A DNA stretch of 64,000 nucleotides from Acidobacteriota bacterium. GTDB lineage: Bacteria > Acidobacteriota > UBA890 > WLXD01. The position numbers were made by a program, and so were the translations under genes. Under the pieces are notes generated by a model. That model was given only the letters and a program-made list of their open reading frames with translations. It searched no databases and had not been told where the DNA came from. Shown in pieces: positions 13,202 to 42,825 of this stretch. Positions within the stretch are counted from its first letter, which is position 1. The number at the start of each line of letters is the position of its first letter. The stretch lies in the NCBI GenBank assembly GCA_965248695.1, contig CBDFKD010000002.1, positions 4,064,001 through 4,128,000 on the forward strand, given 5' to 3'.

Positions 13202-13225
13202 AGTACCGAGGGAGGGACTCGAACC
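13202..13225 (-). repeat. tRNA-Leu 3'-end fragment (att-like), copy 1
   Basis: AGTACCGAGGGAGGGACTCGAACC, identical to 42767-42790; covers the acceptor 3' strand and T-loop. Confidence 0.85.
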
Positions 13226-13507
13226 AGATCCAGAGGATTCTGCCAAGTGATTGATGGCGCACGAAGTTGGTGACGAGGGTCACATGGCCCCGGTTGATCA
13301 ATCGGGATCATCCGCACGTAAGTCGATTGTGGGCAGCTGAGGCTTCTTGGCCGGGGCTGAAACGCCAGCTATTTGCGCAGCGAATCTCTTGAGGAGCCCA
13401 ACGATCGGTGGTTGTATCCAGGCGTCCCATTACTGACCAAGCCAAGAGCCTGACTCGACCAGGGTCATCTCGGAAATCCCGGGAGGTAGACAGTGGCTGG
13501 AGGATCG

Positions 13508-15289
13508 ATGAGGGAAACCAGGCCGCGGCTGTTGATCGCTTTGCTGGCGAGCCTATGCCTCTCGGCTTGTCAGCCTTCAACGCAGGACGCGTCGCCAGGC
13601 GATGCTGGCGGTCCTGCCGATTTGGTGCTGCAGGGCGGTAAGTTCTTTACCGTCGACGAAGCCCAGGTTTGGGCTGAAGCCGTCGCGATCAAGGACGGCA
13701 GGTTCGTCTACGTCGGCGACGACGCTGGTGCACAGGGCTTCGTTGGCGCCGATACCGATCTCCATGACCTCGGCGGCAAGCTGACGATTCCCGGGCTGGT
13801 CGACTCGCATACCCATCCCGGGTACATGGGTCGCTATAGCGGGCCCTCAGGATCGCTTCCGAGGACCAGTAAGGCAGACATACTCGCTGCCGTGAAGGCG
13901 TATGCGGAGGAGAATCCGGACTTACCCTGGATCATTATGTGTTGCTGGCCAGTGACCCTTTACGGCGACGGCAGGGATGGACCTCACAAGAGCGATCTGG
14001 ATGCGATCGCGCCCGATCGACCCGTTTGGCTGGGCAGCAACATCGGCCACAGTGTTTGGGTCAACTCGAAGGCACTCGAGCTGATGGGCGTCGACCGCGA
14101 CACGCCCGACCCTAAACCTGGCCTGGCGCTCTATGTACGCGACGCCGACGGTGAGCTTACCGGCTGGATCAAGGAGAGTGCTTTTCGTCCCTTCCGAAAC
14201 AAGTTCTTCGAGGTAGACGAGGAGGTCTACCAGGAAGGCATGGTCACCTTCCTGGACTACCTTGCGAACCAGGGCGTCACCACGCTCTACGACGGGGGCA
14301 ATGGCTACTACAACGACATGGTCTATTCGTTCCTCGCCGAGCTCGACAGGGCAGGGAAGTTACCGGTCCGCTATGAAGGCACCTATCACATTTTCCTTCC
14401 CGGTCAGGAGGACGCAGCGGTCGAAGAGCTACTGCGCCTGCGCGACACCTACGGCGGCGACCGGCTGCGCTTCAACACCATCAAGATTCACTTCGACGGC
14501 ACCAATGAGATTCGTACCGGCGCCGTGCTCGATCCGTTCAGCGATGACCCGGGCAACCGGGGCAATACGCTGTTGGACACCGATGAGCTGCGCGATTTCC
14601 TTCTTCGGTTGCACGAGTCCGAGCTCGACCTGCACTTGCATACCGTCGGTGATCGGGCCGTCCGGATCGCGCTGGACGCAGTGGAGGCTGCCCGGGAGTC
14701 GCTAGGCGGCGATCTCTACACGCGGGTCGCCGTCTGTCACCTGGACATCATCGACACGTCCGACTATCCGCGCTTCAAGCAGCTGGGCGTGATTGCGAGC
14801 TACACGCCCACATGGCACGGCCTTGGGGACCAACTACCGGCGACTGCAGCTGCCCTCGGTCCTCGCTTCGACAGGATGCTGCTGGTCCAACCGCTCCTGG
14901 ACGATGGCGCGGTCGTGACCTTTTCCAGCGACGTCGTGGGGTTGAATCAGCTGGAGAGCGCCAACCCTTATCTAGGGATGCAGGTCGGCCACAACCGCCA
15001 GTACGCCCGGGGGCAGGGTGTGGATGCGCCGATACGGCTGCCAATGACCGAACGCCTGGACCTGGAGGATCTGATCAAGGGATACACCTTGAACGGCGCC
15101 TATCAGCTTCGGATGGAGGACCAGCTCGGCTCGATTGAGGTAGGCAAGCTCGCCGATCTGGTCGTGCTCGATCGGAACCTGTTCGAGGTGGATCGCTACG
15201 AGATCCGCGAAATTCGACCCGAGGCGGTCATCATGGAAGGCGAGATCGTCAGGGGAAGCTTGGACGGTGGCGCGGAGATGAGGCCATAG
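13508..15289 (+). CDS. Lipoprotein amidohydrolase (YtcJ/Amidohydro_3-like)
   Basis: Lipobox LSAC; PGLVDSHTH, IKIHFDG, LHLHTVGDRAV, VCHLD, FSSD and GSIEVGKLADLVVL. Confidence 0.9.
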   Translation: MRETRPRLLIALLASLCLSACQPSTQDASPGDAGGPADLVLQGGKFFTVDEAQVWAEAVAIKDGRFVYVGDDAGAQGFVGADTDLHDLGGKLTIPGLVDSHTHPGYMGRYSGPSGSLPRTSKADILAAVKAYAEENPDLPWIIMCCWPVTLYGDGRDGPHKSDLDAIAPDRPVWLGSNIGHSVWVNSKALELMGVDRDTPDPKPGLALYVRDADGELTGWIKESAFRPFRNKFFEVDEEVYQEGMVTFLDYLANQGVTTLYDGGNGYYNDMVYSFLAELDRAGKLPVRYEGTYHIFLPGQEDAAVEELLRLRDTYGGDRLRFNTIKIHFDGTNEIRTGAVLDPFSDDPGNRGNTLLDTDELRDFLLRLHESELDLHLHTVGDRAVRIALDAVEAARESLGGDLYTRVAVCHLDIIDTSDYPRFKQLGVIASYTPTWHGLGDQLPATAAALGPRFDRMLLVQPLLDDGAVVTFSSDVVGLNQLESANPYLGMQVGHNRQYARGQGVDAPIRLPMTERLDLEDLIKGYTLNGAYQLRMEDQLGSIEVGKLADLVVLDRNLFEVDRYEIREIRPEAVIMEGEIVRGSLDGGAEMRP

Positions 15290-15347
15290 CGACGGGGGCA
15301 GGTACATTCGGTCCACCCATTCCGGTACACCAAGAGGGAGGTCTTTC

Positions 15348-16985
15348 TTGACGAGCAAGCTCTCCTTCCCTTCCGCCGTCCTTCTATTTGTCGCGCCCGG
15401 CGTGTTGCTCCTAGGTTCTCCGGGGTTGTCTCAGGAAGGGCGACCGGTCGACTTCGAGACCCAGGTCCGGCCCGTTCTGGCCGCCTACTGCTATGAGTGC
15501 CACGGCGCGAACGCTGCCACTCGTGAGGCCGACCTGCGCGTCGACAAGAGGCGTTTCGCCTTCGCGGACCTCGGCGGCTACTCCGCGATCGTTCCGGGCG
15601 AGCCCACGGAGAGCGAGTTGTACATGCGTCTGACCGCCGAGTTCGCGGAGGACCGAATGCCCCCCTACAGCGCCGGGCTCGATGTCGATGTCTTCGAGAT
15701 CGACATCATTCGTCAATGGATCGCGCAGGGCGCCAATTGGCCGGAAGACGTCGACGAACGCGAGCCGCTGCCGGCGCGCCCCGGGGGCTACAGGGTGGGG
15801 CTGCCGGCGGTCGCATTGCCCGAACGGCCGGTCGTGATCAACACCCATGAGATAGAGGAAGTCCGTCTCCGTATTCTGACGCAGGAGCTGTCCCACCCCT
15901 GGTCAATGGCTTTTCTCCCGCGCGGCGACATCCTGATCACCGAGCGCGCCGGACGGCTGCGCCTCTATCGCGACGGGGTCCTGATGCCGGACGCGATAGA
16001 GGGAGCGCCAACCGATATCCTGGCGCGGGGTTTGGCGGGCCTGATGGAGGTCGCCGCCCATCCCGACTTCGAGGACAACCGCCTCGTCTACCTGACCTAC
16101 ACCCGCAAGCTGGACAGCGGTCACGGTACGGTCGCTCTGGTTCGGGGTCGCTTCGACGGCAACGCTCTTCGCGACGTGGAGGACGTGTTCGTGGCGGAGC
16201 CCTGGATGGGACAGGTCGCGGTCGACGATCCCGAGGTGCTCGTCGGCTCGACGGCTGCAGCGCGCCTCGCCTTCGCTGCCGACGGCAAGCTCTTCATGAC
16301 CATGGGCGGTGCCTTCGGCGTGGCGCGTGACGACGGGGGCTCGAGCTTTTTCGGCCTCGCTTTGCTCGCCCAGGATCCCACGAGCCATCTCGGCAAGCTG
16401 CTGCGACTCCACCCGGACGGCTCGGTCCCCGACGACAACCCGTTCGTGGGGCGCGCCGGTGCGAAGCCCGAGATCTACTCGATGGGGCATCGCAATCAGC
16501 AGGGACTGGCACTCCACCCCGAGACCGGAGTCCCCTATACCACCGAGCACGGGGTGCAGGGCGGCGACGAGCTCAACGCCATCGAGGCCGGAGGCAATTA
16601 CGGCTGGCCCTTGGTCTCCTACAGCCGTCATTACGGGGGACCGCGCATTGCCAAGCAGTTTTGGAACGAAGGCTTCAAGGAGCCCGTGGTTCTGTGGGTG
16701 CCTTCGATTGCTCCCTCGGGCCTGGCCTTCTACACCGGCGACGCGTTCCCGCAGTGGCACGGCAACCTCTTCGCCGGATCGTTGCAGGAGGGCAGCATCC
16801 CGCGCACCGGCCACGTGGAGCGCATCGTCTTCAACCGACGCGGCGAAGAGATTCGCCGCGAGTCGCTCCTGGCTGATCTCCGGCAGAGGATCCGCGACGT
16901 CCGCCAAGGCCCGGATGGACTCATCTACATACTGACCGAGCAGAACCGTGCGGCCTTGCTGCGACTGGAGCCGGTCGAACCTTGA
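15348..16985 (+). CDS. PQQ-dependent sugar dehydrogenase (GSDH/YliI-like) fused to an N-terminal planctomycete-type cytochrome c domain
   Basis: VDF...CYECHG...RMPP...WIAQGA; HPWSMAFLP, GHRNQQG, GGDELN, GNYGWP and RIRDVRQGPDG. Confidence 0.85.
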   Translation: MTSKLSFPSAVLLFVAPGVLLLGSPGLSQEGRPVDFETQVRPVLAAYCYECHGANAATREADLRVDKRRFAFADLGGYSAIVPGEPTESELYMRLTAEFAEDRMPPYSAGLDVDVFEIDIIRQWIAQGANWPEDVDEREPLPARPGGYRVGLPAVALPERPVVINTHEIEEVRLRILTQELSHPWSMAFLPRGDILITERAGRLRLYRDGVLMPDAIEGAPTDILARGLAGLMEVAAHPDFEDNRLVYLTYTRKLDSGHGTVALVRGRFDGNALRDVEDVFVAEPWMGQVAVDDPEVLVGSTAAARLAFAADGKLFMTMGGAFGVARDDGGSSFFGLALLAQDPTSHLGKLLRLHPDGSVPDDNPFVGRAGAKPEIYSMGHRNQQGLALHPETGVPYTTEHGVQGGDELNAIEAGGNYGWPLVSYSRHYGGPRIAKQFWNEGFKEPVVLWVPSIAPSGLAFYTGDAFPQWHGNLFAGSLQEGSIPRTGHVERIVFNRRGEEIRRESLLADLRQRIRDVRQGPDGLIYILTEQNRAALLRLEPVEP

Positions 16986-16993
16986 GGTACGCA

Positions 16994-18043
16994 ATGCTAC
17001 GCAAGTTACTGTTCGTGGGTTTGGTCCTGGCCGGCAGCCTCAACGTGGTCGCGGCCCAAGAAGAACGCGCGGTCTCTCTGACCGAGCTCAGGAGTTGGGC
17101 TGAGGAGCTGTCCAACAAGGGTCGATGGGGTGCCGAGGACCGGCTCGGCACGCTCAATCTGATCACGCCCGCCATCAGACAGTCGGCTGCGGCGCTGGTC
17201 CGGGAGGGCATCGTCGTGTCCCTCGCACATGACCTGGTTCCCGGTGAGAATCAGAACGCCCTCCGGACGGGGATGACGCACGACCATGTCACCGACGTGT
17301 CCGGACCCGTCACCTGGGGGCAGGATACGGTGGGCTTCTTCTTCCATGGATACGCATACTCCCACCTTGACGCGTTGTCGCACGCCGCCTTCGACGAGGC
17401 GTTCTACAACGGCTATGGAGTAGAGACGCTGACGGAATCGGGATCGGTCGTTCTCGGCGTCGACGTGATGCGAGACGGCATCGCCTCGCGTGGCGTACTG
17501 ATTGATCTGCCCCGCCTCGAAGGGGTCGAATACCTAGAGCCGCGAACCCTGGTGACTGTGGCGGATCTGGAGGCATGGGAGCGGAGCACCGGTGAACGCG
17601 TCGGCGAAGGCGACGTGCTCCTCGTGCGCACCGGCAGATGGGCCAGGGAAGCGGCTCAGGGCCGCTGGACGCTGTATTGCCCTGGCGCCACGCTCGGCTC
17701 CGAGACGCCGATAGAAGACGTTCTGCAACGGTGTCGGGAAGCTGATGAGGGTGCGGCCGGACTCCATCCATCTGTTGCGCGCTGGCTGCGGCAGCGCGGG
17801 GTAGCGGCCGTAGGCGGCGACGGAGCCAACGAGCGCTATCCCCCCCTTGTCGCGGGCATCTCGGATCCGTTCCACATGCTCACCATCGCTGCGATGGGAA
17901 TGCCCCTGTTCGACAACCTTGATTTCGAGGCTCTCGCCCGCACGGCCGTCGAGATGAATCGGCAGACGTTCTTCTTCGTCGCCGCTCCTCTGCGAATCCG
18001 AGGTGGGTCAGGCTCGCCGGTGAATCCGGTGGCGATCTTCTGA
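16994..18043 (+). CDS. Secreted cyclase family protein (kynurenine formamidase-like)
   Basis: Signal peptide; GRWG..D.LGTLN, SHLDALSH, SRGVLID, GDVLLVRTG and GGSGSPVNP. Confidence 0.85.
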   Translation: MLRKLLFVGLVLAGSLNVVAAQEERAVSLTELRSWAEELSNKGRWGAEDRLGTLNLITPAIRQSAAALVREGIVVSLAHDLVPGENQNALRTGMTHDHVTDVSGPVTWGQDTVGFFFHGYAYSHLDALSHAAFDEAFYNGYGVETLTESGSVVLGVDVMRDGIASRGVLIDLPRLEGVEYLEPRTLVTVADLEAWERSTGERVGEGDVLLVRTGRWAREAAQGRWTLYCPGATLGSETPIEDVLQRCREADEGAAGLHPSVARWLRQRGVAAVGGDGANERYPPLVAGISDPFHMLTIAAMGMPLFDNLDFEALARTAVEMNRQTFFFVAAPLRIRGGSGSPVNPVAIF

Positions 18044-18232
18044 ATGGCACCACACTCCTGCGCCATGAAGGGAGCCCGAACGCTGGCAGATCGAGCCGCC
18101 GTCGCCGCCTCAAGGCGCGGCTCGGGGTCGCGCCCGGCAAGCATTCGCTGGAACGCGCCGCCCCGCCCGTACTACGCTCACGCCGTTCGCTGACAACTCC
18201 CCACGGAGTCGTCCGCAGAGCGGAGGCGTGTC

Positions 18233-19554
18233 ATGAAGTCTGTCGTCGGAAGGCATCCCGCGTTGGTCCTGTTGACGGCCGTTGTCCTAGTGGCTTCGGG
18301 ACTGTTGGTCACCGTCACTCCCGCCGCCTCGACCCCGTCGCTCGAGGCCGCGCAGGAACACTACTTCCCGCCCCGCGGCGAGTGGGAGAGCCGCGCCCCC
18401 GAAGACGTGGGCATGAGCTCTGCGGCGCTGCAGGAGGCGATCGCATTTGCCGAGGCGAACCAGAACCCCGGCAGCCGCGACCTGGCGGTGTGGCTGACGG
18501 AAGAGACGGGCTTCGGCCGCGAGCCATTCTTCTCCGTGCGCGGTGCCACGACGGTGCGTACCGGGATGAACGGGATCATCGTGAAGGGCGGCTACGTCGT
18601 CGCCGAGTGGGGCGATACCAGCAAGGTCGATATGACGTTCTCCGTCACCAAGACTTTCTTGTCCACCACGACCGGGTTGGCGTACGACCGCGGCATGATC
18701 CGCAGCGTCGACGACTACGCGGTCGACTACATGCCGACCGGCGAGGACTTCAAGACCGAGCACAATCGCAAGATCACCTGGGACCACTTGCTGCGCCAAA
18801 CCAGCGACTGGCGCGGCACGTTGTTCACCATGCCGGCCTGGGCCGACCGGCCGGCACGCCGCAACCCCGAGGGCGGTCCGGCGTCATGGACCGATATCCA
18901 GAACGTGCCGCTCTCCGAGCCCGGTACCGTCTTGACCTGACCCCGCGGTTAGTACCATGTCTTATCTCAGTAACTCGGTGCTGACAAGAGGTTGTTGAGG
19001 CCGGCGAAGCGGAGCGCAGCCGGCTTCAACAACGTCGCTTCGGGTGCGGGCGGCCGCTGCCGCGGGTGCTGCGCGAGTATGTCATGGACCCGATCGGCGC
19101 CTCCAACACCTGGCGCTGGCACGGCTACCGCGACTCCTGGGTCATCATCGACGGCCAGCGTATGCAGAACGTATCCGGCGGCGGCCACTGGGGTGGTGGC
19201 ATGCACATCAACGCCTGGGACATGGCGCGCTTCGGTTACCTGTTTCTGAATGACGGGGAATGGGACGGGCAGCGGATCATCTCGGAGGAATGGATCGACA
19301 TGGCCAGCTCGCCCGGGCCCGCCAACCCGACCTACGGCTTCATGAATTGGGGGCTGAACCGCGACGTCGAGCGCGACGGCGAGATGCGTCGCGGGGTGCC
19401 GGAGGCGCCCGGGTCCGCGGTGACGTTCAGCGGCGCCGGCAGCAACCTGATCTTCATCGACAAGGAGCACGACCTGGTCGTCGTTGTGCGCTGGATCTCC
19501 AGTGGCTCCCGCGATTTCTTCGGCAAGGTGATCTCGGCGATCGAAAAGGGTTGA
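18233..19554 (+). pseudogene. Serine hydrolase (beta-lactamase-like), disrupted by an IS3 end remnant with a deletion
   Basis: N part has FSVTK (SxxK) and ITWDHLL. C part RPLPRVLRE...GGGHWGGG...DMARFG resumes after 124 bp of IS DNA. The YxN segment expected between them is absent. Confidence 0.85.
18933..19056 (-). mobile_element. IS3-family right-end remnant (124 bp)
   Basis: Reverse complement of the last 124 bp of the IS at 28775-30034; begins TGACCTGACCCCGCGGTTAG. Confidence 0.95.
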
Positions 19555-19572
19555 GCGCGGCGACGAGCGTCT

Positions 19573-19603
19573 AGTCCCGAGGGAGGGACTCGAACCCTCA
19601 CGC
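19573..19603 (-). repeat. tRNA-Leu 3'-end fragment (att-like), copy 2
   Basis: AGTCCCGAGGGAGGGACTCGAACCCTCACGC, 30/31 identical to 42767-42797. Confidence 0.85.
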
Positions 19604-19777
19604 GGCCCCCACCGCGTGCGTGACTCGCAGTTGACACAACCATTGGTCCAGACGGGTTACGTTCCCTGAACGATGCTCCGTTACTGGCGGCATGACCTCC
19701 CGGAGAAGCCGAGAATGGACATGGAGGCTCGACAAGTTCGGTTCATGGGCGCTGTTCGCGGCACGTCCAGGCGACAA

Positions 19778-21562
19778 ATGACAGCTTTGCTGGTTCTCGG
19801 TCTCCTGGCTCCCGCTTGCACCGAACCTGCCGAGAAGCCCACGGATCGAACCGGAACGGAGCGCGCCGGACAGTACGCGACGGACTCGTCGCGTTGGGGC
19901 GAGGTCACGATCCAGACGGACTCCGTCGTGACAGCAGGGGCCTCCGGCGAAGACCGCAGAGCATTGCTCGAGATGATCGAGCGACAGCATCAGGGCTGGT
20001 TGGCACAGGACTCCCGAGCGTTGCGTGACGTCATGGCCACGGACGCCATGCGTGTGCACGCCAGTTCCGGGCTCAGCGACAGCGCCGACGCGATCGTCGC
20101 GGCACTGCCGGTGGAGTGGGAGTCACACGAACGTCCCTACGGGATCATCGCTCAGAGCTATGAGATTCGCGATGTCGAGCTCGCCGTCCAGGGTGACATC
20201 GCTACCGCCACCTACTGGATGGATGTGCACGGCGGCGCGCGCTGGGAGTTCGATGGGCAGCGAGTGAGCTTCGACGTGTATCGCCGAGCGGCACCCACAT
20301 GGGAGCTGTTGTTTCACACGGACGCAGCGGCTCGACGATCAGATGCGGCGGCAGAGCTCGGCTTGCCGCACATGGAATTCGTCTATCCCGCCGAAGACCT
20401 CGAACGGGTAGCTGCCTTCTATCAGCCCTTGCTCGGCGAGCCTGACGGACGCTCGTCGGAGCGCCTATCGTACGACCTGGGAGACGCTCGTTTTCACTTT
20501 GATACGACGACGCTGACGGGGTTCGCGCAGTCAACCGATGGAACGCCGAACGGGTATGCGGAGTTTGTCGTGCCGGACCTCGATGGCGAGGCGCTTCGGC
20601 TCCGGTCGATGGGGATCTCTGTAGACCGGGTCGACGCGACAGCCGAAAGGCCCGCTGCTGCATTGGTCCAAGACCCTGCCGGAAATGTGCTCCTCTTGCG
20701 CGAGCAGGCGCATGTAGAGGACTCCGTCGGCGCACCTTCCTTGACGGTAGCTCCCGATCCAGGCTCCTCGCACGAGATCCAGCAGACGATCGAAGCCTAC
20801 TGGAATGCCTGGCTGATGATGGACACCGAGAGTCTGGTCGATCAGCTGTCCTCCGACAGCCGTTGGGTTTCGGAGACCGACGCGAGGGGCGCAATTGACT
20901 ACGAGGGCAACGAGGAGATCCGCCAGGCGCTGCCGGCGGTCTGGAGCAACTACGACCGCGGACCGGCAGGTGTAGCCGTCGATGTCAACATCGGGAGTCG
21001 GACCGTTCGACACCTGTCGGACCTCGCCCTGGTCAGTTATGAGTACCGGATGGTGGGTGTTGATTCGTCGCGTAACCACGAGGCGGGCGTGGTGACGCAT
21101 TTGCTCGAAAAAGAGAGATCCGGCTGGAAGATCGGCTGGTCTCTCTTCACGACGCTCGACGATAGCGACGATCTCGTCCTGTCCCTCGACTACACCGGTT
21201 ATCCGGTCGGGCCGTTGCGTCGGCCAGAGCGCTTCTACACCGACATCCTGCGACTGGGCTCGCCATATCAGGATGTCGCGTACCGCGGTTGGTGGACACG
21301 CAGCAGTGTGTTCGGGATCTACCGTGTCGGATCTTCGAGCCCGGAGCTGCTCCGGCCGAAGAGAACCAACGGGTACGCGAGCTTCTGGGTCGAGTCCGTC
21401 GACGAGGTGTACGAGTACCTCCAACGGAGCGGGTCCACTTTCCCTGTCATACTTGCGATCAACGACACGGAGGGCATCGACCGGCAACCTGGCTACATTC
21501 AGCTAGTCTCGACCGACTCCGAGGGCAACATCGTCCTGTTCACTGAGTATCCGGGAACCTAG
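19778..21562 (+). CDS. Putative lipoprotein with alternating NTF2/SnoaL-like and VOC/glyoxalase-like domains
   Basis: Lipobox LAPAC. NTF2-like segments end in WELLFH and GWKIGW. VOC-like segments: DLERVAAFY...VQDPAGNVLLL and FYTDILRL...TDSEGNIVLF. Start uncertain (ORF from 19673). Confidence 0.65.
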   Translation: MTALLVLGLLAPACTEPAEKPTDRTGTERAGQYATDSSRWGEVTIQTDSVVTAGASGEDRRALLEMIERQHQGWLAQDSRALRDVMATDAMRVHASSGLSDSADAIVAALPVEWESHERPYGIIAQSYEIRDVELAVQGDIATATYWMDVHGGARWEFDGQRVSFDVYRRAAPTWELLFHTDAAARRSDAAAELGLPHMEFVYPAEDLERVAAFYQPLLGEPDGRSSERLSYDLGDARFHFDTTTLTGFAQSTDGTPNGYAEFVVPDLDGEALRLRSMGISVDRVDATAERPAAALVQDPAGNVLLLREQAHVEDSVGAPSLTVAPDPGSSHEIQQTIEAYWNAWLMMDTESLVDQLSSDSRWVSETDARGAIDYEGNEEIRQALPAVWSNYDRGPAGVAVDVNIGSRTVRHLSDLALVSYEYRMVGVDSSRNHEAGVVTHLLEKERSGWKIGWSLFTTLDDSDDLVLSLDYTGYPVGPLRRPERFYTDILRLGSPYQDVAYRGWWTRSSVFGIYRVGSSSPELLRPKRTNGYASFWVESVDEVYEYLQRSGSTFPVILAINDTEGIDRQPGYIQLVSTDSEGNIVLFTEYPGT

Positions 21563-21619
21563 CTAGCCATCGCCGCGGCGTCGGCCGCCGGGAAGACTCT
21601 GACGAAGAGGACCCGTACT

Positions 21620-22981: not shown

Positions 22982-23033
22982 CCGGGGAGAGGTGGCATGA
23001 GCCCCTAGTAGGTCTATTCGCGCGCTTCAAGGG

Positions 23034-28216: not shown

Positions 28217-28315
28217 TACCCCGACCTGCCGTGAACTCATGCGCAAACCTCTCGGCCTGATGGGTCATAATCGTGCGTTCGCCGAACTCCTTTCATCGAC
28301 CTTGAGGTTGAGGAG

Positions 28316-31485: not shown

Positions 31486-31788
31486 CTACGAGAGCGCCTC
31501 GTCCAGTATCTCGAGGGCTAGCGGCCAGTTCTCCTTGTGCCCGTCGCGGGACTTCTCGGAGACGAAACCCGAATGGGTCAATCTGACTTCTGTCGCCGCA
31601 TCTTTGGGAACCAGCTCAATCCGAATGACGGTCTCGGCTCCTTCTGTTCCCTCGGCGGTTCCATTGCCCGTCATCCACGTCATTTCGATGAGCTGGTTCT
31701 CTTTCACGTCGAGGAATCGGCCGTAGTGGGGGTGTCGGCCCCATTCGTCCCGGTTGTAGAAGAAGTATGGCCGCCCCGGCTCCGGCAC
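31486..31788 (-). pseudogene. SRPBCC/AHSA1-like protein, 5' end removed by IS copy B
   Basis: RHPHYGRFL...MTW...ETVIRIEL...TEVRLTHSGF...W..AL; the frame runs into the IS end at 31789. Confidence 0.8.
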
Positions 31789-35232: not shown

Positions 35233-36319
35233 GATGCTCCTGTGGAATGTGCGAAAAATATTTGACGATCGCGAGCAGGCCGAGCGCGCCGTTGTCCTGC
35301 GTAATCGAGGGCCCGTCTGTATGGTTGGTCAGCACAATCTGCTCATCATCCGGCGTGCCATAGTCTTTGCCCGGCAGATAGGTAATCAGTTGGTAGGCCT
35401 CGGCAGGCTCCACGGTGGCCTCGAGCCTGAGCGTTGCTGACTTGCCGGCCTTTGCATCCTCGATGACCTTGGCGCCATCCTCGCGGGATAGTTTCAACGT
35501 TGGCGCGTCATAGAGTGACGGCACAACAAACGTGTAAAGCCCCCGGGTGCGTTCGTAGGCCATGTCATAGACGATGACCGCACCAGCGGCGTTACCGTCT
35601 TTCGGAATTCTGTCGAGTCGCTGGATAAGCTGCCACGAGGCGTCGAACGTGAAACTCTCGGCAGGATCAACCTTCGTGAACGGCGGCGGCAGAGTATCGG
35701 CGTCCACCGCATACTCATAGTCGTTATAGGTGAAGTTGATCAGATAGTCCCGAGGATACGGCTCGCTCGGGTGCGGGCGCGTGGGAATGACGACGATCTT
35801 GCCCTCGATCGACTCCGGCGGGTTGTCGTGATCGTAGTAGACCATCTCGGCCGTAATGCCATTCGGACCAGTCGACCCGGAATAGGCGCCATAGTGCGCC
35901 ACCCGAACCGGCGTACCGTCCGAATGCAGTGACCAGTTGCTTGAATCGTCCGAAGTGTCCCAGCGCTCGAACTCCCAGCTGTTTTTCCAGGTATCGACGA
36001 CGCCGTATTCCGAAAGCGTTTCTTCCAGGAACGCCATGTAATTGAGCCACTCGGGACTTCCGGTCATGGTGGGGAGGTTGTCGTTCTTGACTGACGCCCA
36101 GGCATGAGCTTCGGCTGTTGTCACCAGCCAATCCGAATCGAGCGTTGCGAATTTCTCCTCATAGGACACTGCGGGGCTGTCGCAGGACATAAGGACGAGC
36201 GATAGCGAACACAGAACGATTGATCGAAGCATAGGGCGAGTTTCCTGTTATTCAGTTCGATTACCGCGGACCGGCCCAGACCGATCCGCACCTACCTTTC
36301 CGGAGCTTGAGGAGTCCAA

Positions 36320-36579
36320 ATGAGAAATAACAACTCGATCGTGGCGATCGCGATGACGGTCGCGGTTCTTCTCACTTTTCCGAGTTCCACCTTTGCCCAG
36401 CAGAAAGTGTTCATCGACGCAGATGTCGGAGGCGTGGTCGGCACCGACATTCAATCCATGTTGATGCTTCTCCAGTCGCCGGCCATCGAGGTCGTGGGAG
36501 TCAGCATCGTCTCTGGTGACGGCTGGCTCAAGGCAAGTACACAGCGAGCGCTCCGAATGCTGGAGCTGACCGGGCATGG
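36320..36579 (+). pseudogene. Secreted nucleoside hydrolase, N-terminal part truncated by IS copy C
   Basis: Signal peptide; KVFIDADVG, LLQSPAIEVVGVSIVSGD and ALRMLELTG. Confidence 0.8.
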
Positions 36580-37839
36580 TGACCTGACCCCCGAAAACGG
36601 ATCCGGATGTAATCTCACGATCTGGGTCAAGAACGGGAGGTCAGAATGCCGAGTAAGAGGCACAGCGCCGAGCAGATCGTACGCAAGCTCCGGGAGGCTG
36701 AGGTGGAGCTGGCTCGAGGGGCGACGGTCAAGGATGCCTGCCGCAAGCTAGCAATCACCGAGCACACCTACTACCGGTGGCGGCGAGAGTACGGCGGACT
36801 GAAGCTCAACCAGGCCAGAAAGCTCAAGCAACTGGAGAAGGAGAATGCCCGGCTCAAGAGGCTGGTGGCGGAAAAGGAACTCGACCTGTCGATCCTGAAG
36901 GAAGTGGCGGAGGGAAACTTCTGAGCCCAGCTCGGCGGCGAGAGGCGGTGGCACATGTACGGGGGCGGCTGGGCGTCTCGGAGAGGCGGGCGTGTCGGGT
37001 ACTGAAACAACCACGCACGACACACCGGTACGTGCCAAGAGAGCCGCAACAGGAGCAGATTTTGACGGAGCGGATCGTGGATTTAGCCCGACAGTACGGG
37101 CGCTACGGATATCGGAGGGTGACAGCGTTGCTGCGCATGGAGGGCTGGTCCGTGAACCACAAACGAGTGCAGCGTATCTGGCGGCGCGAAGGGCTGAAAG
37201 TACCGAGAAAACAGCCCAAACGAGCACGGCTGTGGCTGAGCGATGGCTCCTGCATCCGGCTGCGCCCACAGCACCGGGATCATGTCTGGGCGTATGACTT
37301 CCTGCACCACCGGACGCACGACGGTCGGGCTATGAGGCTGCTGACGATCGTCGATGAGTACACACGAGAAAGCCTGGCGATCCATGTAGCACGGAAGCTC
37401 AACTCTGAGGACGTGCTGGAGCAGCTCGGGAGGTTGTTCGTACACCGGGGCATACCTGAGCACATCCGGTCGGATAACGGACCAGAGTTCACCGCCGAGG
37501 CGGTTCGCGACTGGCTGGGCCGGTTGGGCGTGGGGACGCTGTTCATCGAGCCGGGCTCGCCGTGGGAGAACGGTTACGTGGAGAGCTTCAACGGCAAGCT
37601 ACGCGACGAGCTGCTGGATGGAGAGATCTTCTACACGCTCAAGGAGGCAAAGGTTCTGATCGAGAGATGGCGTCAGCACTACAACCGCATGCGACCGCAC
37701 AGCTCGCTGAGCTATCGGCCGCCCGCACCCGAAGCGACGTTGTTGAAGCCGGCTGCGCTCCGCTTCGCCGGCCTCAACAACCTCTTGTCAGCACCGAGTT
37801 ACTGAGATAAGACATGGTACTAACCGCGGGGTCAGGTCA
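36580..37839 (+). mobile_element. IS3-family element, copy C (1260 bp)
   Basis: Same ends and ORFs as copies A and B; no target duplication. Confidence 0.97.
36646..37805 (+). CDS. IS3 transposase OrfAB, copy C
   Basis: Translations identical to copy A. Confidence 0.95.
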
Positions 37840-37890
37840 CTGGACTTGGACCGTTTCTACAAACTGTACATTGACCTGATGAAGCGCTAG
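37840..37890 (+). pseudogene. Probable C-terminal tail of the nucleoside hydrolase
   Basis: LDLDRFYKLYIDLMKR* immediately after the IS; resembles the D.D..RF...C-terminal helix of nucleoside hydrolases. Confidence 0.6.
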
Positions 37891-37971
37891 TCACCCTGAA
37901 CATTTTCATCATGAAGCGCAACTGCGAGTCCAACACGACCTCGATTTCGAACGGTTCATTCGGGGCAGTCG

Positions 37972-38571
37972 CTATGTCCGCTGGCGGCGGAGCTGCATGG
38001 CAAGCCGCCGAGTCCAACGCAGCGCCGCGCAGGGGGTGACCGCCGCCACGGCCGCGGCGGAGTTTTGCAGCATGTCCAACGGATCGAACACGCGGCTGGG
38101 TAGAAACGCCTGGATGCTCTCATCGAGCACGCCGATCAGCGACGTCGCCAGGATGGCGAGCAAGGCGGGCACGGGTACTCGGCGACTCTGGCTCGCTCGC
38201 TCGGTGAGCGCCTCATAGATGAGGAGGGCGACCACGCTGTACTCCAGGAGGTGGGAGCGTTCGGCCGGGAGCGCCATCCGGATGGCCACCAAGACGTAAG
38301 CGACCCCGACTCCCAATGCGACGGCGATTTCCACGCCGCCCGGCCTTACCTTCAGCCCCTGGGTCAAGACCATCACCCCGACCAGCAGCATGCAGATGAA
38401 GAAGCCTGCGCCCATGACGCTGTCGTCCAGTACCCCCACCAGCGTTCGCGCCAGGCCGAGGGTCGAGTAAACCGCCACCACGACGGCCAGCGTCCAGCCC
38501 CACAGGCGCTGCTCTCGATCGGAGGTGAACAGGAGCCAGGATTGACGTTTCGATGCGTCCAGATCCGACAT
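37972..38571 (-). CDS. VanZ-like membrane protein
   Basis: ERSHLLEY and GVLDESIQAFLPSRVFDPLDMLQN; several hydrophobic segments. Confidence 0.8.
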   Translation of the reverse strand: MSDLDASKRQSWLLFTSDREQRLWGWTLAVVVAVYSTLGLARTLVGVLDDSVMGAGFFICMLLVGVMVLTQGLKVRPGGVEIAVALGVGVAYVLVAIRMALPAERSHLLEYSVVALLIYEALTERASQSRRVPVPALLAILATSLIGVLDESIQAFLPSRVFDPLDMLQNSAAAVAAVTPCAALRWTRRLAMQLRRQRT

Positions 38572-38621
38572 GAATCATCCTCAGCAGAGGGGGGCCGCGG
38601 TTGACGGGTGGCAATCTCAAG

Positions 38622-38665
38622 TGTTGACATCGTCAACATACTGGAGAATGTTTACTACGTCAACA
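38622..38665. promoter_or_regulatory. Tandem palindromic operator-like sites
   Basis: TGTTGAC-ATC-GTCAACA (38622-38638) and TGTTTAC-TAC-GTCAACA (38649-38665), each followed by TACT. Confidence 0.6.
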
Positions 38666-38755
38666 TACTCGGTCATCGTTGACCGATAGGGCGCGAGCAT
38701 GTCACCACGGGAACCCGCGGGCGGCACTGCTCGCTGAAGCCGCCGTCATGATCGG

Positions 38756-38771
38756 CGAGGGAGGGACTCGA
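38756..38771 (-). repeat. tRNA-Leu 3'-end fragment (att-like), copy 3 (short)
   Basis: CGAGGGAGGGACTCGA, a 16-bp exact match to the 42767 fragment. Confidence 0.65.
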
Positions 38772-38800
38772 GCTCAACCGGGTTGCTGATGGATCACCGA

Positions 38801-38825
38801 AGTACCGAGGGAGGGGCTCGAACCC
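38801..38825 (-). repeat. tRNA-Leu 3'-end fragment (att-like), copy 4
   Basis: AGTACCGAGGGAGGGGCTCGAACCC, 24/25 match to 42767-42791. Confidence 0.8.
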
Positions 38826-38985
38826 GAGCTCGTCGAACCTATCTCGGCGACACGAAGGACGACGCTCGAAAGGCGAGCGAGCAGATCGGGGTGCAGAGCT
38901 GGCCGTCCGATCTCGTTGTTCTGGTCGTTGTCTCGGGGTAGCGTCCCGAGCACAGTTTCCAATGCTGAAATCTGGGAGCCACGCC

Positions 38986-40531
38986 ATGCACCCATTGCCG
39001 TGCGCCGGCGGTATCGGACTCGCGCTGTTCGCCTCCCTTGCACTCGTCGGCCAAGACCGGGGCTCCGAACCCACCGCAGAGGACCGCGTCGACGAGGAGT
39101 TCACCGCCGCGGCGATTGCTCTGCTCGCACTCGACGGCAAGCTCTCGCTCGACGACACGATCCAGCGGCATCCTGCCCTGGGTTCCCGAGTTCGAGCATC
39201 CGATCACGATCCGCAATCTGATCCACCACAACAGCGGTATCCGGGATCAGTGGTCGCTGCTCGGAATGTCCGGATGGCGCTACTCGCGCGACCTGATCAC
39301 GGACAACGAAGTCATCTACCTGATCAAGAGGCAGCGCGACCTCAACTTCCGGCCTGGTGAGCGCTACACGTACTCGAACACGGGCTACACGCTGTTGGCC
39401 CTGATCGTGGAAGCGGTCAGCGGCCAGTCGCTGCGCGATTTTACGACTAGTCGGATCTTCGAGCCTCTCAGCATGAGCCGCACGCATTTCCGCGACGACT
39501 TCTCGGAGATCGTCAAGGACCAGGCGTACGGCTACCGCTGGGACGAGGGCGACTCGGTGTTTCGGCTCAGCGTGACCAACTTCGACACCGTCGGCGCCAC
39601 GAGCTTGCTGACGACCGTCGAGGACATGGCGCGTTGGGACCGGAACTTCATCGACCCTGCGGTGGGCGGCCGGGATTTCCTCGACCTCATGCACCGGCGC
39701 GGCACGCTTAACGACGGCGAGGATCAGGACTATGCATTCGGGCTGACACACGGGAGCTACCGGGGAGCTCGGACGGTCGGCCACGGCGGCTCCGACGCGG
39801 GCTACCGTTCGAACTTCCTGCGCTTCCCGGATCACGGCTATAGCTTCGTGGTGTTGTGCAATCTGGCCCAGACGAATCCCGGCCGGCTGGCACAAGCGGT
39901 TGCCGACATCTACCTCGAGGAGCAGCTCGAGCCCGTCGCGGGTGAGACCGGCGCACCGGACCACGCCAGCGCAGCAGCAGCCCCGCCGGTGCCGATCGAC
40001 GAGGGCGCGCTGTCCCGCGTAGAGGGCGTGTACTGGTGGGAGGAGCGCGGGATTCCCCTGCGGATCGGAAGCTCCGAGGGAACGCTCGAGCTGCATGTCG
40101 GCGAAACGGACTTCGAGATCGTCCATACGAGCGACGGCCGTTTCCTGATTCCGCGGCTCGATCGGGTCGCGAGGTTCGAGCCCCCGACGGGCGAGGCGAC
40201 GGCAATGGCGCTGTGGCCGCCCGGCGACGAGAGCCCCATCGATATGGCGGCGAAGATCGCTCCGCTGGACGACACCTCGAATCTTCTCGACTACATCGGC
40301 GCCTATCAGAGCCCCGAGCTCCCGGTCGTCTACTACATCGATATGAACGAGAACACGCTGGTCCTTCATTGGCTCAAGCGCGACCCCGTGGAGCTCACCG
40401 AGGTGGCACGTGACATGCTGATGGGGAGCGCGGGGAGTCTCCGTTTCCAGCGGGGCTCCGACGGCCAGATCAGCGGGTTCGTCCTGGACTCCGGTCGGGT
40501 GAGGAACTTCCGGTTCGAGCGGGTTCGGTGA
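38986..40531 (+). pseudogene. Serine hydrolase (AmpC-like) with internal deletion and +1 frameshift
   Basis: EDRVDE joins directly to EFTAAAIALL, so SxxK is missing. Extra C near 39172. Downstream ITIRNLIHHNSG, YTYSNTGY and VGHGG. Confidence 0.8.
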
Positions 40532-40663
40532 GGGAGGCGGGGCCGTGGGTGCAGGCGTAGCCTGCGTTTGGCGCCTGAGATCCTCGAACGCTTGTTCGCA
40601 GAAACGGTACCGTCCCGTCGTGCTTATCCGAATCCAAAGTCCGTAGCGCATAGACTGGCTGAG

Positions 40664-41083
40664 ATGATCCAGAAGACAGACATCCTGAAGGCAATCGGCG
40701 TCGCCCTCGTCATCATGGTGGTCGACGTGGCGATCAGCTTCCCCGTCGTCGCCGTCTATGCGTACTTCATCGAGCCCGGGCACGATGCAGCGTTCTACGA
40801 ATCAGCGGCCCAGCGAATCGCCCCCTGGTCGAGCGTAGTTGCCGGCGTTTTCTTGTTTTTTGGGGCTCTCTACTGGCTCACCCGACGAAAGCCCGAGCGG
40901 CATGCTGTCGGATTCGCTCTCGCAGTCTGGGTGGCCTTCGCTGCGTTCGCGTTGGCGATCGACTTGGCGATTCTCGCAGGCGCGGGGGGATCGCTGCGCT
41001 CCATCGCCGGCATCGTCGCGTTGTCACTGGCGACCAAGTTCGCCGCAGCCATCACAGGCGCCTGGGTAGCAAGCCGACCCTAG
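40664..41083 (+). CDS. Small membrane protein, unknown function
   Basis: About four hydrophobic segments; start uncertain (ORF from 40568). Confidence 0.6.
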   Translation: MIQKTDILKAIGVALVIMVVDVAISFPVVAVYAYFIEPGHDAAFYESAAQRIAPWSSVVAGVFLFFGALYWLTRRKPERHAVGFALAVWVAFAAFALAIDLAILAGAGGSLRSIAGIVALSLATKFAAAITGAWVASRP

Positions 41084-41356
41084 GGAGCCTTGGTTCGGGA
41101 CCCACCCAGATAGACGATCTCGCCCTCGGATCTACGGCTGGCCCCGATCGGTATCACGTGTCTGTTGCGACTGCGACGACTAGCCGTAGAAGAGCCACTC
41201 GGTGTCGTTGTAGCGGTACGAGTACCGAATGCGTTGAACTAATTCGAGTGTTACCAGTAGCGTCAACAGAGGAAGGAGCGAGAGAACGACCGTCTTAAAC
41301 CGGGTCCGGAGTTTCGATCCATCTCGGAGCCGTAGCGTCAAAACATCCTAGCAAAA

Positions 41357-41400
41357 TGACCTGCCCCATCCAACGATCGGGTCAGTTTCAGGGGAGGTCA
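41357..41400. mobile_element. 44-bp collapsed IS3-type end pair
   Basis: TGACCTGCCCC (same as the end at 25210) ... GGGGAGGTCA; TG...CA termini; no ORF. Confidence 0.6.
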
Positions 41401-41586
41401 CGAAACGCGGTCCGCCAGCTCCGACGATCTCTTGCCGACACCGATTTTACGAGTTATGAAGTGGCCCGAGTTATTTCGTGCATGTCAGATGCAGTTCGGC
41501 GACTCGGAGTTCGATTTGGGAAGGCCGGGTGGACACTCGGCAACCAATTGCTCCTGTCGTCCAATCCTTGCGTGATGGAGGGTGCG

Positions 41587-42555
41587 ATGAGTGAAAGAGC
41601 GATGAACACTTCGTGGTTTTGGCTGAAGACTACCGGGACGGCAATCCTGGCGCTTAGCATCACCGCTTGCGGTGGTGCAGAACAAGCAGCAGAAGATGAA
41701 CTTGCAGAAGCAACATTGGACCCGCCAGATATCGCAACGCTCTCGCCAGAAGCGACCGATGAAGACATCGTGCAGCACATGTTGTGGGTCATGGATAATC
41801 AGACGACCTCGAGCGAGCTAACGGAACATTTCGCTGATCTGGATCGCGTTCGTGCGTACAACATCCAGCGATTGCGCTTGGCGCATCGAGGGCAGACGGA
41901 AGCCAGAGTTGGTTGGAAAATCGGATGGTCGAACCAACCTGATCCGAGCGTCGCCATCGATCCGGCTTTCGGACACATCATGGCGTCGGACGTGCTCAAT
42001 CCTGAACTCGAGGTGTCGCTCGACCGTCTAATCGATGGTAAGACTGCCCTTGAAGCCGAGATCGCGTTTTGGCTGGATAAGGATTTACCGGGTCCTACGG
42101 TGACTCGGGAAGACGTGATTGATGCGACAGTAGAAGTAGCAGGCGCAATCGAGTTAGTCGAACCTCGTGTGGCTGCGTTCGGCAGCGATTCCCTCTATTG
42201 GCCCAACCGTCATAACCATGGCATCGTGGACAACATCTGGCACAGTGGCGTGTTGTTCGGTTCGACGCGTGTCAGCCTCGACGAGATTGATTTTGCGACC
42301 GAGACGGTAACAGTGGCTGTGAATGATGAGCCGATCTTGGAAGGCAGCATGTCGTGGACGATGGGGCGTGATCCTATCGAAGGCGTTGTATGGCTCGCGA
42401 ACGAAATGCTCGAGTACGGTTTTCAGTTGAGTGCGGGTGACTTCGTTATCACGGGCGCCGTGGTCTATAGAGGTTCGGTTCTTCCTGGTGATGAGGCGAC
42501 TCTGACGTACTCGAGTCTTGGCACGATGCGTATGACAATTGCATCTACGCCTTAG
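41587..42555 (+). CDS. 2-keto-4-pentenoate hydratase/FAA-hydrolase family protein with lipoprotein signal
   Basis: Lipobox ITAC; AYNIQ, VGWKIG, LEAEIAF, IVDN, VVWLAN and LSAGDFVITG. Confidence 0.85.
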   Translation: MSERAMNTSWFWLKTTGTAILALSITACGGAEQAAEDELAEATLDPPDIATLSPEATDEDIVQHMLWVMDNQTTSSELTEHFADLDRVRAYNIQRLRLAHRGQTEARVGWKIGWSNQPDPSVAIDPAFGHIMASDVLNPELEVSLDRLIDGKTALEAEIAFWLDKDLPGPTVTREDVIDATVEVAGAIELVEPRVAAFGSDSLYWPNRHNHGIVDNIWHSGVLFGSTRVSLDEIDFATETVTVAVNDEPILEGSMSWTMGRDPIEGVVWLANEMLEYGFQLSAGDFVITGAVVYRGSVLPGDEATLTYSSLGTMRMTIASTP

Positions 42556-42766
42556 GTGCGTGCGTAAAGCCGCATTGAATCCGCCGTAGCCCTCCGCCGC
42601 GAACCGCTTGTGCAGTCGATGCGCCCAATGCGGCAGACGGCCGCTCGAGCGATACGCCTTAGACGGCGTCTAACATCGGCTTAGTGGCCCCAAATGTGGC
42701 CCCATGCCACTGCCGGCCGATGCCTCGAACGGAGTCGGAAGCGTCGTAACCCACTGTTTCGATTGA

Positions 42767-42825
42767 AGTACCGAGGGAGGGACTCGAACCCTCACGCCCT
42801 TGCGGGCACCGGATTTTGAGTCCGG
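42767..42825 (-). pseudogene. 3' part of tRNA-Leu(CAA), anticodon arm to discriminator; att-like, copy 5
   Basis: Minus strand CCGGA-CTCAAAA-TCCGG anticodon arm, long variable arm TGCCCGCAAGGGCG, GAGGGTTCGAGTCCCTC T arm and CCTCGGTA. The D arm and 5' acceptor strand are absent. Confidence 0.9.

Follow-up and report, generated by a model that had tools for sequence, protein, structure and literature searches.

The DNA analysed here, referred to as the window, is a stretch of 64,000 nucleotides from the genome (G000) of an Acidobacteriota bacterium (assembly GCA_965248695.1, contig CBDFKD010000002.1; G000:C2:4064001-4128000). It contains five short direct repeats that correspond to 3' fragments of the leucine tRNA gene tRNA-Leu(CAA), separated by catabolic genes and insertion sequences (IS). 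A search with the core CGAGGGAGGGACTCGA, allowing up to two mismatches, gave five matches in the window, all on the forward strand, against an expectation of 0.19; none of 100 shuffled sequences reached five. Read on the opposite strand, the 16-nt core gives the T-arm and acceptor (3') end of tRNA-Leu(CAA), so that the fragments are tRNA sequence on the reverse strand. Their extents were set by ungapped comparison with the 85-nt tRNA-Leu(CAA) of G000 itself (Table 1). Reading of each site bore out the original prediction that five copies lie at these places, on one strand and between open reading frames (ORFs), and the predicted lengths were correct to within 1-2 nt. That inventory was right as far as it went, but it overlooked a sixth, vestigial junction (45580-45610), the arm sequence adjoining fragment 5 (42826-42932) and an integrase remnant (~13045-13169).

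The fragments are preserved to different degrees. In fragment 5, all seven differences from the tRNA fall inside one 10-nt stretch of the variable arm, which reads GCCCGCAAGGGC. This arm is unlike that of the present tRNA of the genus and is of the type found in the single-copy tRNA-Leu(CAA) of G007 and G008, which belong to other genera of the family; such a foreign arm fits a 3' half displaced, or brought in, by an element. The 3' flank of fragment 2 is orthologous to a junction of the closest congener, G003 (L015_10381), which retains the full 59-nt fragment together with its P arm, the element side of the attachment (att) site. Both flanks of fragment 4 are orthologous to another G003 junction (L015_7010), which also retains a 59-nt fragment. 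No tRNA sequence was found on either flank of fragment 3. The P-side (5') flank of fragment 1 (13226-13263) is 91% identical to the flank of an equal-length fragment in contig C2 of the congener G004. At the sixth junction, the trailer left in the window is the same that adjoins the tRNA 3' end in G003 (an intact tRNA) and in G004 (a fragment), and homology of the window to both genomes ends at 45610.

Across 28 junctions read in six genomes (G000-G005), tRNA identity begins either at the anticodon loop (ACTCAAAA), giving the 59-nt kind, or at GGTTCGAG, giving the 24-nt kind, which is represented by fragment 1 and its G004 counterpart with homologous flank. With edges at the anticodon loop or the T-loop, and with a P arm beside some of them, the repeats of the window appear to be real att sites.

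Table 1. Features of the array and its surroundings, in window positions.
Feature	Position	Strand	Description
Trailer and frameshifted tyrosine-integrase C-terminus remnant	13045-13202	+	Trailer 13170-13202; FRYSTGL 13045-13065; AKASSHGTEC and stop 13137-13169, other frame
Fragment 1, tRNA-Leu(CAA) 3' fragment	13203-13225	-	23/23 match; T-loop type, identity begins at GGTTCGAG
Cargo between fragments 1 and 2	13493-19554	+	Amidohydrolase, GSDH/cytochrome c dehydrogenase, cyclase, beta-lactamase-family gene (Pfam)
Fragment 2, tRNA-Leu(CAA) 3' fragment	19574-19602	-	28/29 match; P side truncated
19.2-kb interval, mosaic	19673-38571	.	DUF4440, BNR, beta-lactamase-family, alpha/beta hydrolase, Rieske, APH-like kinase, AHSA1, VanZ (Pfam)
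Fragment 3, partial core copy of 16 nt	38756-38771	-	16/16 match
Fragment 4, decayed junction	38802-38825	-	23/24 match
Cargo between fragments 4 and 5	38868-42766	+	Beta-lactamase-family 39038-40531, 171-aa ORF, weak FAA-hydrolase-like ORF 41356-42555 (Pfam)
Fragment 5, anticodon stem-loop to 3' end	42768-42825	-	51/58 match
Class A P arm (element side of att site)	42826-42932	-	Tandem repeat TTTCACAGTTACTTACACA at 42882-42900
tRNA-proximal module cargo	42933-45579	+	Cupin, glyoxalase-type dioxygenase, truncated DNA-alkylation-repair-like ORF (Pfam)
Sixth, vestigial junction	45580-45610	-	Trailer and last 5 nt of tRNA end left; tRNA body gone
IS-B, IS256-like, with 9-bp duplication half	47530-48942	+	IS 47530-48933; GCCGTCGAA at 48934-48942; Transposase_mut domain

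The window holds no intact tRNA, as had been predicted: none reached the Rfam gathering score, and a tRNA-Leu(CAG) called by ARAGORN at 59323-59403 was taken as false, lying inside a 606-aa ORF with high GC content at third codon positions and having no Rfam support. The intact parent tRNA-Leu(CAA) was located by ARAGORN 4 Mb away, at C2:89822-89906 on the forward strand, opposite to the fragments of the window, and no match to the integrase family PF00589 lies beside it. In the whole genome, exact copies of the core are restricted to the window (four, plus one with a single mismatch) and to C2:89887, 92090 and 92970. The first of these lies within the intact tRNA, and the other two are co-oriented fragments that follow it. 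Copies with one mismatch comprised fragment 4 and an unrelated tRNA-Leu(GAG), and seven matches with two mismatches were unrelated, so that the core is not dispersed. A doubtful ARAGORN call at C2:92021-92109, labelled tRNA-Leu(CAA), corresponds to a 59-nt fragment and its P-arm DNA.

The distance between the window and the parent tRNA is accounted for by a chromosomal inversion. Over 1404 nt, an IS256-like element of the window (IS-B) is 99.93% identical to a counterpart in inverted orientation, IS-A, at C2:105817-107220. IS-B is flanked by the 9 bp GCCGTCGAA, whose reverse complement adjoins IS-A (C2:107221-107229), and G003 holds this target site once and uninterrupted (GCCGTCGAC). One target duplication divided between two inverted IS copies indicates a single insertion split by inversion of C2:107221-4111529. 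IS-mediated inversions leave two inverted copies at the breakpoints, each with half of one target duplication, and relatives hold the empty site. The G000 case is ordinary in these respects, and differs only in the outer flanks of IS-A and IS-B, which share a shifted 8-nt match, AATCGGTC, and no clean second duplication.

Gene order in the congeners agrees with this reconstruction. Contig C33 of G003 joins the segment equivalent to 4.033->4.1096 Mb of G000 to the tRNA and then to the segment 89.9->58 kb, and contig C31 joins 127->107.4 kb directly to 4.1129->4.127 Mb. The partners are thus swapped between the two genomes, which is the signature of an inversion. The adjacency seen on G003 C31 is also retained in G004 (C11) and G002 (C9), giving the uninverted order in three congeners. 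The array therefore seems to have been carried ~4 Mb from its tRNA and flipped by an IS256-like-mediated inversion of ~4.0 Mb (C2:107221-4111529), either by recombination with a second inverted copy or by intramolecular transposition. The supposition that a missing tRNA is a feature of the system itself did not hold, since this inversion would have cut the array from C2:89822-89906.

When the inversion is undone, all eight core copies have one orientation and lie within ~52 kb 3' of the tRNA. The restored order is the tRNA, two proximal fragments, ~18 kb of other DNA, the vestigial junction at 45610, and fragments 5 to 1. The ~18 kb consist of a 110-bp ancestral flank, a 6.1-kb segment 99% identical to G003:C30, an IS cluster and two gene fragments. 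The 6.1-kb segment (C2:93096-99221; L001:15096-20000 and beyond) lies just after the parent tRNA array and corresponds to G003:C30:24365-30499; its content includes a PAD_porph-family (peptidyl-arginine deiminase) gene and a 583-aa ORF for which Pfam gave no match. Because its identity of 99% compares with 79-87% in the core flanks, it looks like a recent transfer between the species of G000 and G003. An IS pile-up occupies C2:99-107 kb.

GC skew is continuous across both breakpoints, as expected given that the inverted arc contains the skew switch (5.35 Mb) and polarity is kept. Skew was initially a candidate argument against the inversion and was dropped, since an inversion spanning the 5.35-Mb switch keeps polarity and skew can neither date nor prove the event. 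On C2, cumulative GC skew is lowest near 3.55 Mb and highest near 5.35 Mb, which gives arcs of ~1.8 and 4.0 Mb; this strong replichore imbalance fits repeated IS-mediated rearrangement.

The sequences on both sides of the tRNA halves are also conserved. The P arm of fragment 5 (~107 nt, on the 5' side) aligns with eight other junctions of G000, G003 and G004, and an alignment of 179 nt with the junction at C2:91957-92123 shows ~80% identity. The part common to the nine aligned arms measures ~90 nt and contains tandem CTTWCACA (CTTACACA) repeats and a TAAG...ACTTA pair. In all nine, homology stops sharply at the outer edge of the arm, against unrelated cargo. On the other side, a trailer of ~30 nt with an (A)CTTAC motif is kept 3' of most junctions, and the trailer after fragment 1 resembles that of the single-copy tRNA in G007, a member of another genus. 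Among 26 genomes of the order, the arm motif was found only in G000, G003 and G004, which belong to one genus, at eight sites (none with a reversed control), seven of them beside fragments and one at a junction of P arm and trailer without the tRNA half. This 'coreless' P-P' junction, at L015:18620-18690 of G003 (C33:516.6 kb), has a class A P arm joined almost directly to trailer-like sequence. G003 also has a second type of P-side flank (class B), gtgttctcaggggttaccg..., at L016:8700-8790 and L016:2120-2210. Over 14 nt, two copies of class B match the stretch coding for RYTH in the G004 integrase gene described below, and they were considered as integrase remnants. They were not counted as such, because their translation gives only ...IRYTH.../...IRHTH..., after an in-frame stop, in an orientation unfit for a simple deletion.

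No gene for a tyrosine or serine recombinase was found in the window, in agreement with the original prediction. The profiles PF00589, PF00239 and PF14659 gave 13, 2 and 1 matches in G000, respectively, none of them in the window or at C2:89-93 kb, and no PF00589 match lies within 300 kb of the window. A custom hidden Markov model (HMM) built from 13 integrase catalytic domains was run on 4403 six-frame pieces from the window array, the parent locus and the G002-G004 arrays. Only the two positive controls matched, namely the G004 integrase (8e-82) and the G002 remnant (5.6e-11). The next best pieces had E values of 0.018 (L020, G004) and 0.12 (L025), neither in the G000 or G003 arrays, and the best piece of the window reached E 0.31. 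A 399-aa ORF at 41356-42555, considered as an integrase for its size and its place by the longest fragment, was rejected, its sole Pfam match being a sub-threshold one to FAA-hydrolase.

Traces of an integrase are nevertheless present beside fragment 1, where positions 13132-13203 align with the trailer and the 3' end of the G004 integrase gene (blastn and alignment). The remnant spans ~40-50 codons, and the corresponding part of the G004 protein reads DRYTHLT...AKASSDGTKG before its stop. This decayed gene end suggests that an integrase-bearing element once lay 3' of fragment 1. It was the only match when the G004 integrase gene was searched against all the arrays with blastn (7-nt words) and nhmmer. 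The G004 gene itself, at L020:2382-3515, is intact, encodes a 377-aa PF00589 integrase and lies 35 nt 3' of the same tRNA, and an integrase remnant is found beside a fragment in G002 (L022). No full homologue of the G004 integrase was detected in G000, in which the best matches were a Xer-like gene and a 46-aa scrap at C2:4470868. The predicted absence of integrases thus stands for genes in the array and needs qualifying by this remnant and by the intact integrase of G004; a check for decayed integrases yielded the one remnant (~13045-13169), beside fragment 1, and none elsewhere in the window.

The array is not peculiar to G000. Occurrences of the terminal 22 nt of the tRNA, at no more than one mismatch, were counted in 11 genomes of the family. 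Within the genus there were 7 copies in G000, 3 in G001, 6 in G002, 9 in G003 and 6 in G004; in other genera, G005 had 4, G007 and G008 had 1 each, and G006, G009 and G010 had 0. The orthologous array of G003 lies beside the intact tRNA, with the tRNA and eight co-oriented fragments in 30.1 kb, in addition to the coreless junction. No PF00589 match was found on the contig carrying it, the seven of that genome being all elsewhere, and the 20-kb array of G002 had no integrase. The G003 modules measure 0.6-5 kb, with one of 11.7 kb, and each contains one to three ordinary metabolic or transport genes, in mixed orientation. Their products include a ureide-permease-like transporter, a CNNM/CorC transporter, an alpha/beta hydrolase, beta-lactamase-family proteins, a PQQ-like propeller protein, a cupin, DNA-alkylation-repair-like proteins and Rieske oxygenases.

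Some modules recur among different neighbours. The module at C2:92419-92991, the last of the tRNA-proximal array in G000, is 94% identical to one that lies mid-array in G003. The module at 43730-45610 comes after the intact tRNA in G003 and after a fragment in G004, and the DNA beyond it differs in each genome. Array modules are 94-98% identical between G000 and G003, compared with 79-87% in the core flanks. The whole array-side region (G000 C2:4.033-4.110 Mb against G003 C33:438-535 kb) is 87-98% identical, and the other side of the tRNA and the surroundings of the second breakpoint are 79-87% identical. The surroundings of the island seem, as one block, to be younger or to have been exchanged between G000 and G003. 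In G002 and G004, tRNA-Leu(CAA) fragments also occur far from the tRNA and on either strand, for example at G002:C8:599629 (reverse strand), G002:C9:483080, G002:C9:1417327, G004:C2:346825 and G004:C5:49791/51596. One such distant fragment in G002 and one in G004 adjoin a paralogue of the 773-aa ORF found at 7202-9523 of the window. The arrays seem to have been broken up repeatedly in the genus.

The content of the intervals in the window was as predicted, with hydrolases, dehydrogenases and similar genes, and five IS copies. Between fragments 1 and 2, the sequence 18141-19603 is 95-96% identical to G003 L015:8988-10390. A 124-bp IS3 end piece at 18933-19056, which is 100% identical to the end of a 1260-bp IS3 and in the opposite orientation, splits the beta-lactamase-family gene into ORFs at 18233-18940 and 19066-19554; the G003 orthologue is uninterrupted. 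In the 19.2-kb interval, a glutamine-synthetase-like gene is divided into an N-part (24475-25212) and a C-part (26495-27169) by an IS3 at 25209-26481, whose transposase (25244-26425) is on the reverse strand. Three copies of the 1260-bp IS3 (28775-30034, 31789-33048 and 36580-37839, by blastn against the genome) and one IS256 copy (33870-35232) complete the five IS of this interval. Its segment 19619-23002 matches G003 C33:485.9-489.2 kb, outside the G003 array. Between fragments 4 and 5, positions 38868-40573 are 92-95% identical to G003 L015:7098-8956. In the tRNA-proximal module, 43730-44966 is 94% identical to G004 L017, and the DNA immediately downstream of the intact tRNA of G003 shares 98% identity with 44987-45610. 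The fragments had been taken as module borders. This is supported by relatives, where module content changes at the fragments, but it does not extend to the 19.2-kb interval, an IS-ridden mosaic with non-array genes. IS elements have expanded throughout G000, with ~50 near-identical copies of the 1260-bp IS3, ~10 of a 1273-bp IS3, ~10 of a 1363-bp IS256 and ~18 of the 1404-bp IS256-like element.

Taken as a whole, the identity of the fragments, their edges at crossover places and their P arms support the proposal that displaced 3' halves of tRNA-Leu(CAA) mark the junctions of a tandem array. We consider, with a probability of roughly three in four, that the five repeats are att junctions which arose as elements integrated, one after another and site-specifically, at the 3' half of this tRNA, and that the window contains a tandem accretion array of decayed modules resembling cis-mobilizable elements (CIMEs). 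Each integration would restore the tRNA with sequence borne by the element, and the older 3' half, joined to the P arm of the newcomer, would be pushed further downstream each time. The 59-nt fragments would reflect crossover in the anticodon loop, and the 24-nt kind crossover in the T-loop. The integration genes would then be lost, presumably by deletion, leaving cargo bounded by att sites; a burst of IS would cut up the array, and an IS256-like element would finally invert ~4.0 Mb, moving and flipping it. An accretion array of this sort is a known kind of structure, and of the two readings first offered, that of an accretion hotspot whose integrases were lost is the better fit. As G000 has no cognate integrase, the array is probably immobile at present, unless an incoming element supplies one.

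Several observations weigh against this scenario. Traces of integrases are very rare, with one intact gene and two remnants across the junctions read in five congeners, and random deletion should more often leave partial integrase genes. Deletion should also more often take the ~30-nt trailer, which lies between the tRNA end and the integrase stop and is kept at most junctions. In none of the five genomes was an integrase seen together with both att sites as a complete element. Two genes, A and B, that form one module in G003 are found in the order B...A, 19 kb apart, in the window, which is unexplained. The break at 45610/45611 falls at the tRNA 3' end and not at an IS, and is followed by an unexplained mosaic (45611-47529), so that the history must have had more steps than one inversion. 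It is also possible that the inversion is a misassembly across the 1.4-kb IS copies, as public contigs break at repeats. Over 37800-47600, contigs from 4 of 23 public runs (X1, X5, X6 and X8) end at fragments, with few joints and short sides (21-66 nt) that may come from relatives or repeats.

The scarcity of integrase scars, the kept trailer, the sharp edge of the P arm and the small modules keep alive a second explanation, which we regard as unlikely: that the modules never contained an integrase and are tRNA-anchored cassettes, each consisting of cargo and a ~180-bp site (P arm, tRNA half and trailer). A tRNA-Leu-specific tyrosine integrase acting in trans, such as that of G004 or one from an incoming element, would excise, circularise and stack the units, in the manner of an integron with lambda-type att sites. 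A circle formed between two neighbouring fragments would hold P arm, core and trailer, and hence a complete attP-like site. The arm homology that ends ~90 nt from the core in 9/9 aligned junctions would suit such a unit, as would the ordinary genes in the small G003 modules and the absence of intact integrases from all seven intervals of G000 and all eight of G003. An uncultured relative has two fragments 2.0 kb apart, again with no integrase between them. Yet the remnants at two junctions are what decay predicts, and excision, circles and action in trans are purely hypothetical in G000, where nothing of the G004 integrase beyond the 46-aa scrap is found. The mixed gene orientation gives no common promoter logic.

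The recurrence of one module among different neighbours (C2:92419-92991; 43730-45610) and the higher identity of array modules than of core flanks would also suit exchangeable units. Homologous recombination between 59-nt direct repeats could, however, also reorder or delete modules, and with the whole array-side region at 87-98% similarity the shared modules may have been inherited or exchanged as one block. In addition, units that lack an integrase but are flanked by att sites (CIMEs), and islands with partial tRNAs scattered through them, have already been described (PMC5704250; bioRxiv 10.1101/2020.12.28.424599). It is unlikely that the genus and its uncultured relatives maintain a tRNA-Leu(CAA)-anchored array of integrase-less cassettes that are shuffled, gained and lost through a trans-acting integrase. 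A third explanation, in which the repeats are not att sites at all but a dispersed tRNA-derived repeat, similar to miniature inverted-repeat transposable elements or repetitive extragenic palindromes, or a segmental duplication holding the tRNA 3' end, would suit the shortness of two of the five copies (16 and 23-24 nt) and the repeat-rich genome, with its ~50 copies of one IS3 and other IS families, but is highly improbable, since the copies lie at only two loci (one before the inversion), the DNA between them is unrelated and so not duplicated, identity begins at the two classical tRNA crossover places, fragment 5 has a foreign variable arm, and junctions of this type have integrases next to them in G004 and other phyla.

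Serial integration as the origin of the array finds its closest parallels among described accretion systems. CIME accretion in Streptococcus thermophilus is reportedly covered by Pavlovic 2004 and Bellanger 2011. In a review that treats accretion of this kind, described for ICESt1-related islands of that species, CIMEs are elements without integration and transfer genes that keep attL and attR, and in tandem accretion newcomers integrate into the resident att site, in one orientation, at the 3' end of the target gene (PMC5704250). The array resembles CIMEs in that its units are integrase-less and att-bounded and follow one another, all facing the same way, at the 3' end of the target gene. The full structure of P arm, core and trailer is present at 42768-42932 and at C2:92.0 and 92.9 kb, and is decayed at fragments 2-4. 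Pfam scans of the window and of the parent-locus modules found no transfer genes, and no backbone genes of integrative and conjugative or integrative and mobilizable elements were found in any module scanned, integrase sequence being limited to the remnants at two junctions and the intact G004 gene. Differences are the up to 8-9 junctions here, compared with 2-3, modules as small as 0.6-3 kb with ordinary metabolic genes, and the absence of such a backbone and of an adjacent functional element for mobilisation in cis.

A similar likeness is found with the tycheposon islands of Prochlorococcus, which lie beside tRNA genes, have elements placed side by side and separated by partial tRNAs, and contain fragmented integrases, scattered partial tRNAs and metabolic cargo (bioRxiv 10.1101/2020.12.28.424599). 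That preprint cites supplementary side-by-side elements, which may bear on how unusual integrase-less arrays are. The tRNA-adjacent position, integrase fragments, further partial tRNAs and metabolic cargo are common to both; the differences are a host with 65% GC and a 5.9-Mb genome, the distinct CTTACACA-repeat P arm and the severing of the array from its tRNA. As for tycheposon hallmarks, no recombinase was found in the window, and no primase or helicase appeared in Pfam scans of module ORFs of the window and the parent locus.

Islands in tRNA genes have been classified by the sublocation of integration, reportedly by Williams 2002. In the window, a displaced co-oriented fragment is recognised once the inversion is undone (16/16 to 51/58 nt identity), and the crossover places are those expected, at ACTCAAAA for the 59-nt fragments and at GGTTCGAG for fragment 1 and its G004 counterpart. 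Of an integrase for each island, only the remnant is seen. Islander uses a displaced 3' tDNA fragment as the mark of an island end and counts 2083 islands with anticodon-centred and 1836 with T-stem crossover; every island must have its own integrase gene and a fragment oriented correctly relative to the tDNA, and tandems of three or more islands occur only 4 times among 3919 (PMC4383910). As it stands, the array lacks both the integrase and the orientation that Islander requires, and since pipelines of this type demand them, arrays like this one would go unreported.

Integron cassettes are promoter-less or single-gene units with their own recombination site, stacked at one chromosomal site by a recombinase encoded outside the unit. 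The likeness lies in stacked units that each have a recombination site and a recombinase that is not part of the unit. In contrast with integrons, no IntI, attI or Pc is present here, the junctions are tRNA 3' halves with lambda-type direct-repeat arms, a form unlike that expected of folded attC sites, and gene orientation is mixed; no IntI heads the array, since neither the DNA within 300 kb of the window nor that next to the parent tRNA matches PF00589. A literature search for an integrase-less tRNA-half cassette system returned only the CIME, tycheposon and Islander frameworks, a published example being still conceivable. As regards the suggestion that this is an undescribed system, the structure is of a known kind, and the lack of tRNA and integrase is largely explained by inversion and decay.

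The P arm was also looked for outside the order. A loose scan of one genome per species, with a pattern of 16 specified bases that proved too loose, gave at least 119 loci and at least 122 motif sites, about two thirds of which look like chance. Among the matches listed, T-arm-like sequence lies within 190 nt after the motif at 38 of 122 sites, and at those 38 the tRNA fragment starts in the anticodon loop, with the arm motif 60-100 nt upstream (loci L040-L152). By our own reading of the visible anticodon loop, the tRNAs are of the Leu(CAA), Leu(TAA), CAT-anticodon and Ser types, and record labels among the matches listed include Acidobacteriota, Planctomycetota, Burkholderiales/Polynucleobacter, Micavibrio, Phenylobacterium and others. 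Some arm sites have an integrase next to them, directly after the fragment and antisense in L070, L100 and L178, and upstream on the sense strand in L046, L064, L117 and L130. A scan of metagenomes gave 20 loci, one of them with an integrase; two of the 20 have two fragments each, and one of these two (L168) comes from a relative of the genus. Viral contigs gave five loci, one with a fuller tRNA-Leu motif and none resembling this genus. These results point to the P arm belonging to a widespread family of tRNA-integrating elements, and one integrase family of wide distribution may use the CTTACACA-repeat arm as its arm-type binding site.

For genome annotation, these results indicate that 'orphan' tRNA fragments, with neither tRNA nor integrase, can be an ordinary hotspot displaced by an IS-mediated inversion, a case that the split target duplication makes unusually clean here. 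The arrays themselves are of moderate interest, being long, recurrent across the genus and almost without integrases, so that tools requiring an integrase would miss them. Sets of 6-9 tRNA halves in a common orientation, which delimit small modules lacking an integrase, recur in all five species sampled from the genus. The CTTACACA-repeat P arm found beside fragments of several tRNAs starting at the anticodon loop, in many phyla, hints that the recombination machinery is widespread, and may offer a sequence marker by which one family of tRNA-integrating elements can be located across phyla. If the modules were cassettes after all, they would be a lambda-type counterpart of the integron, invisible to island finders because every unit is without an integrase. 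The arrays are a tractable place to ask whether integrase-less, att-flanked cargo is dead wreckage or exchangeable.

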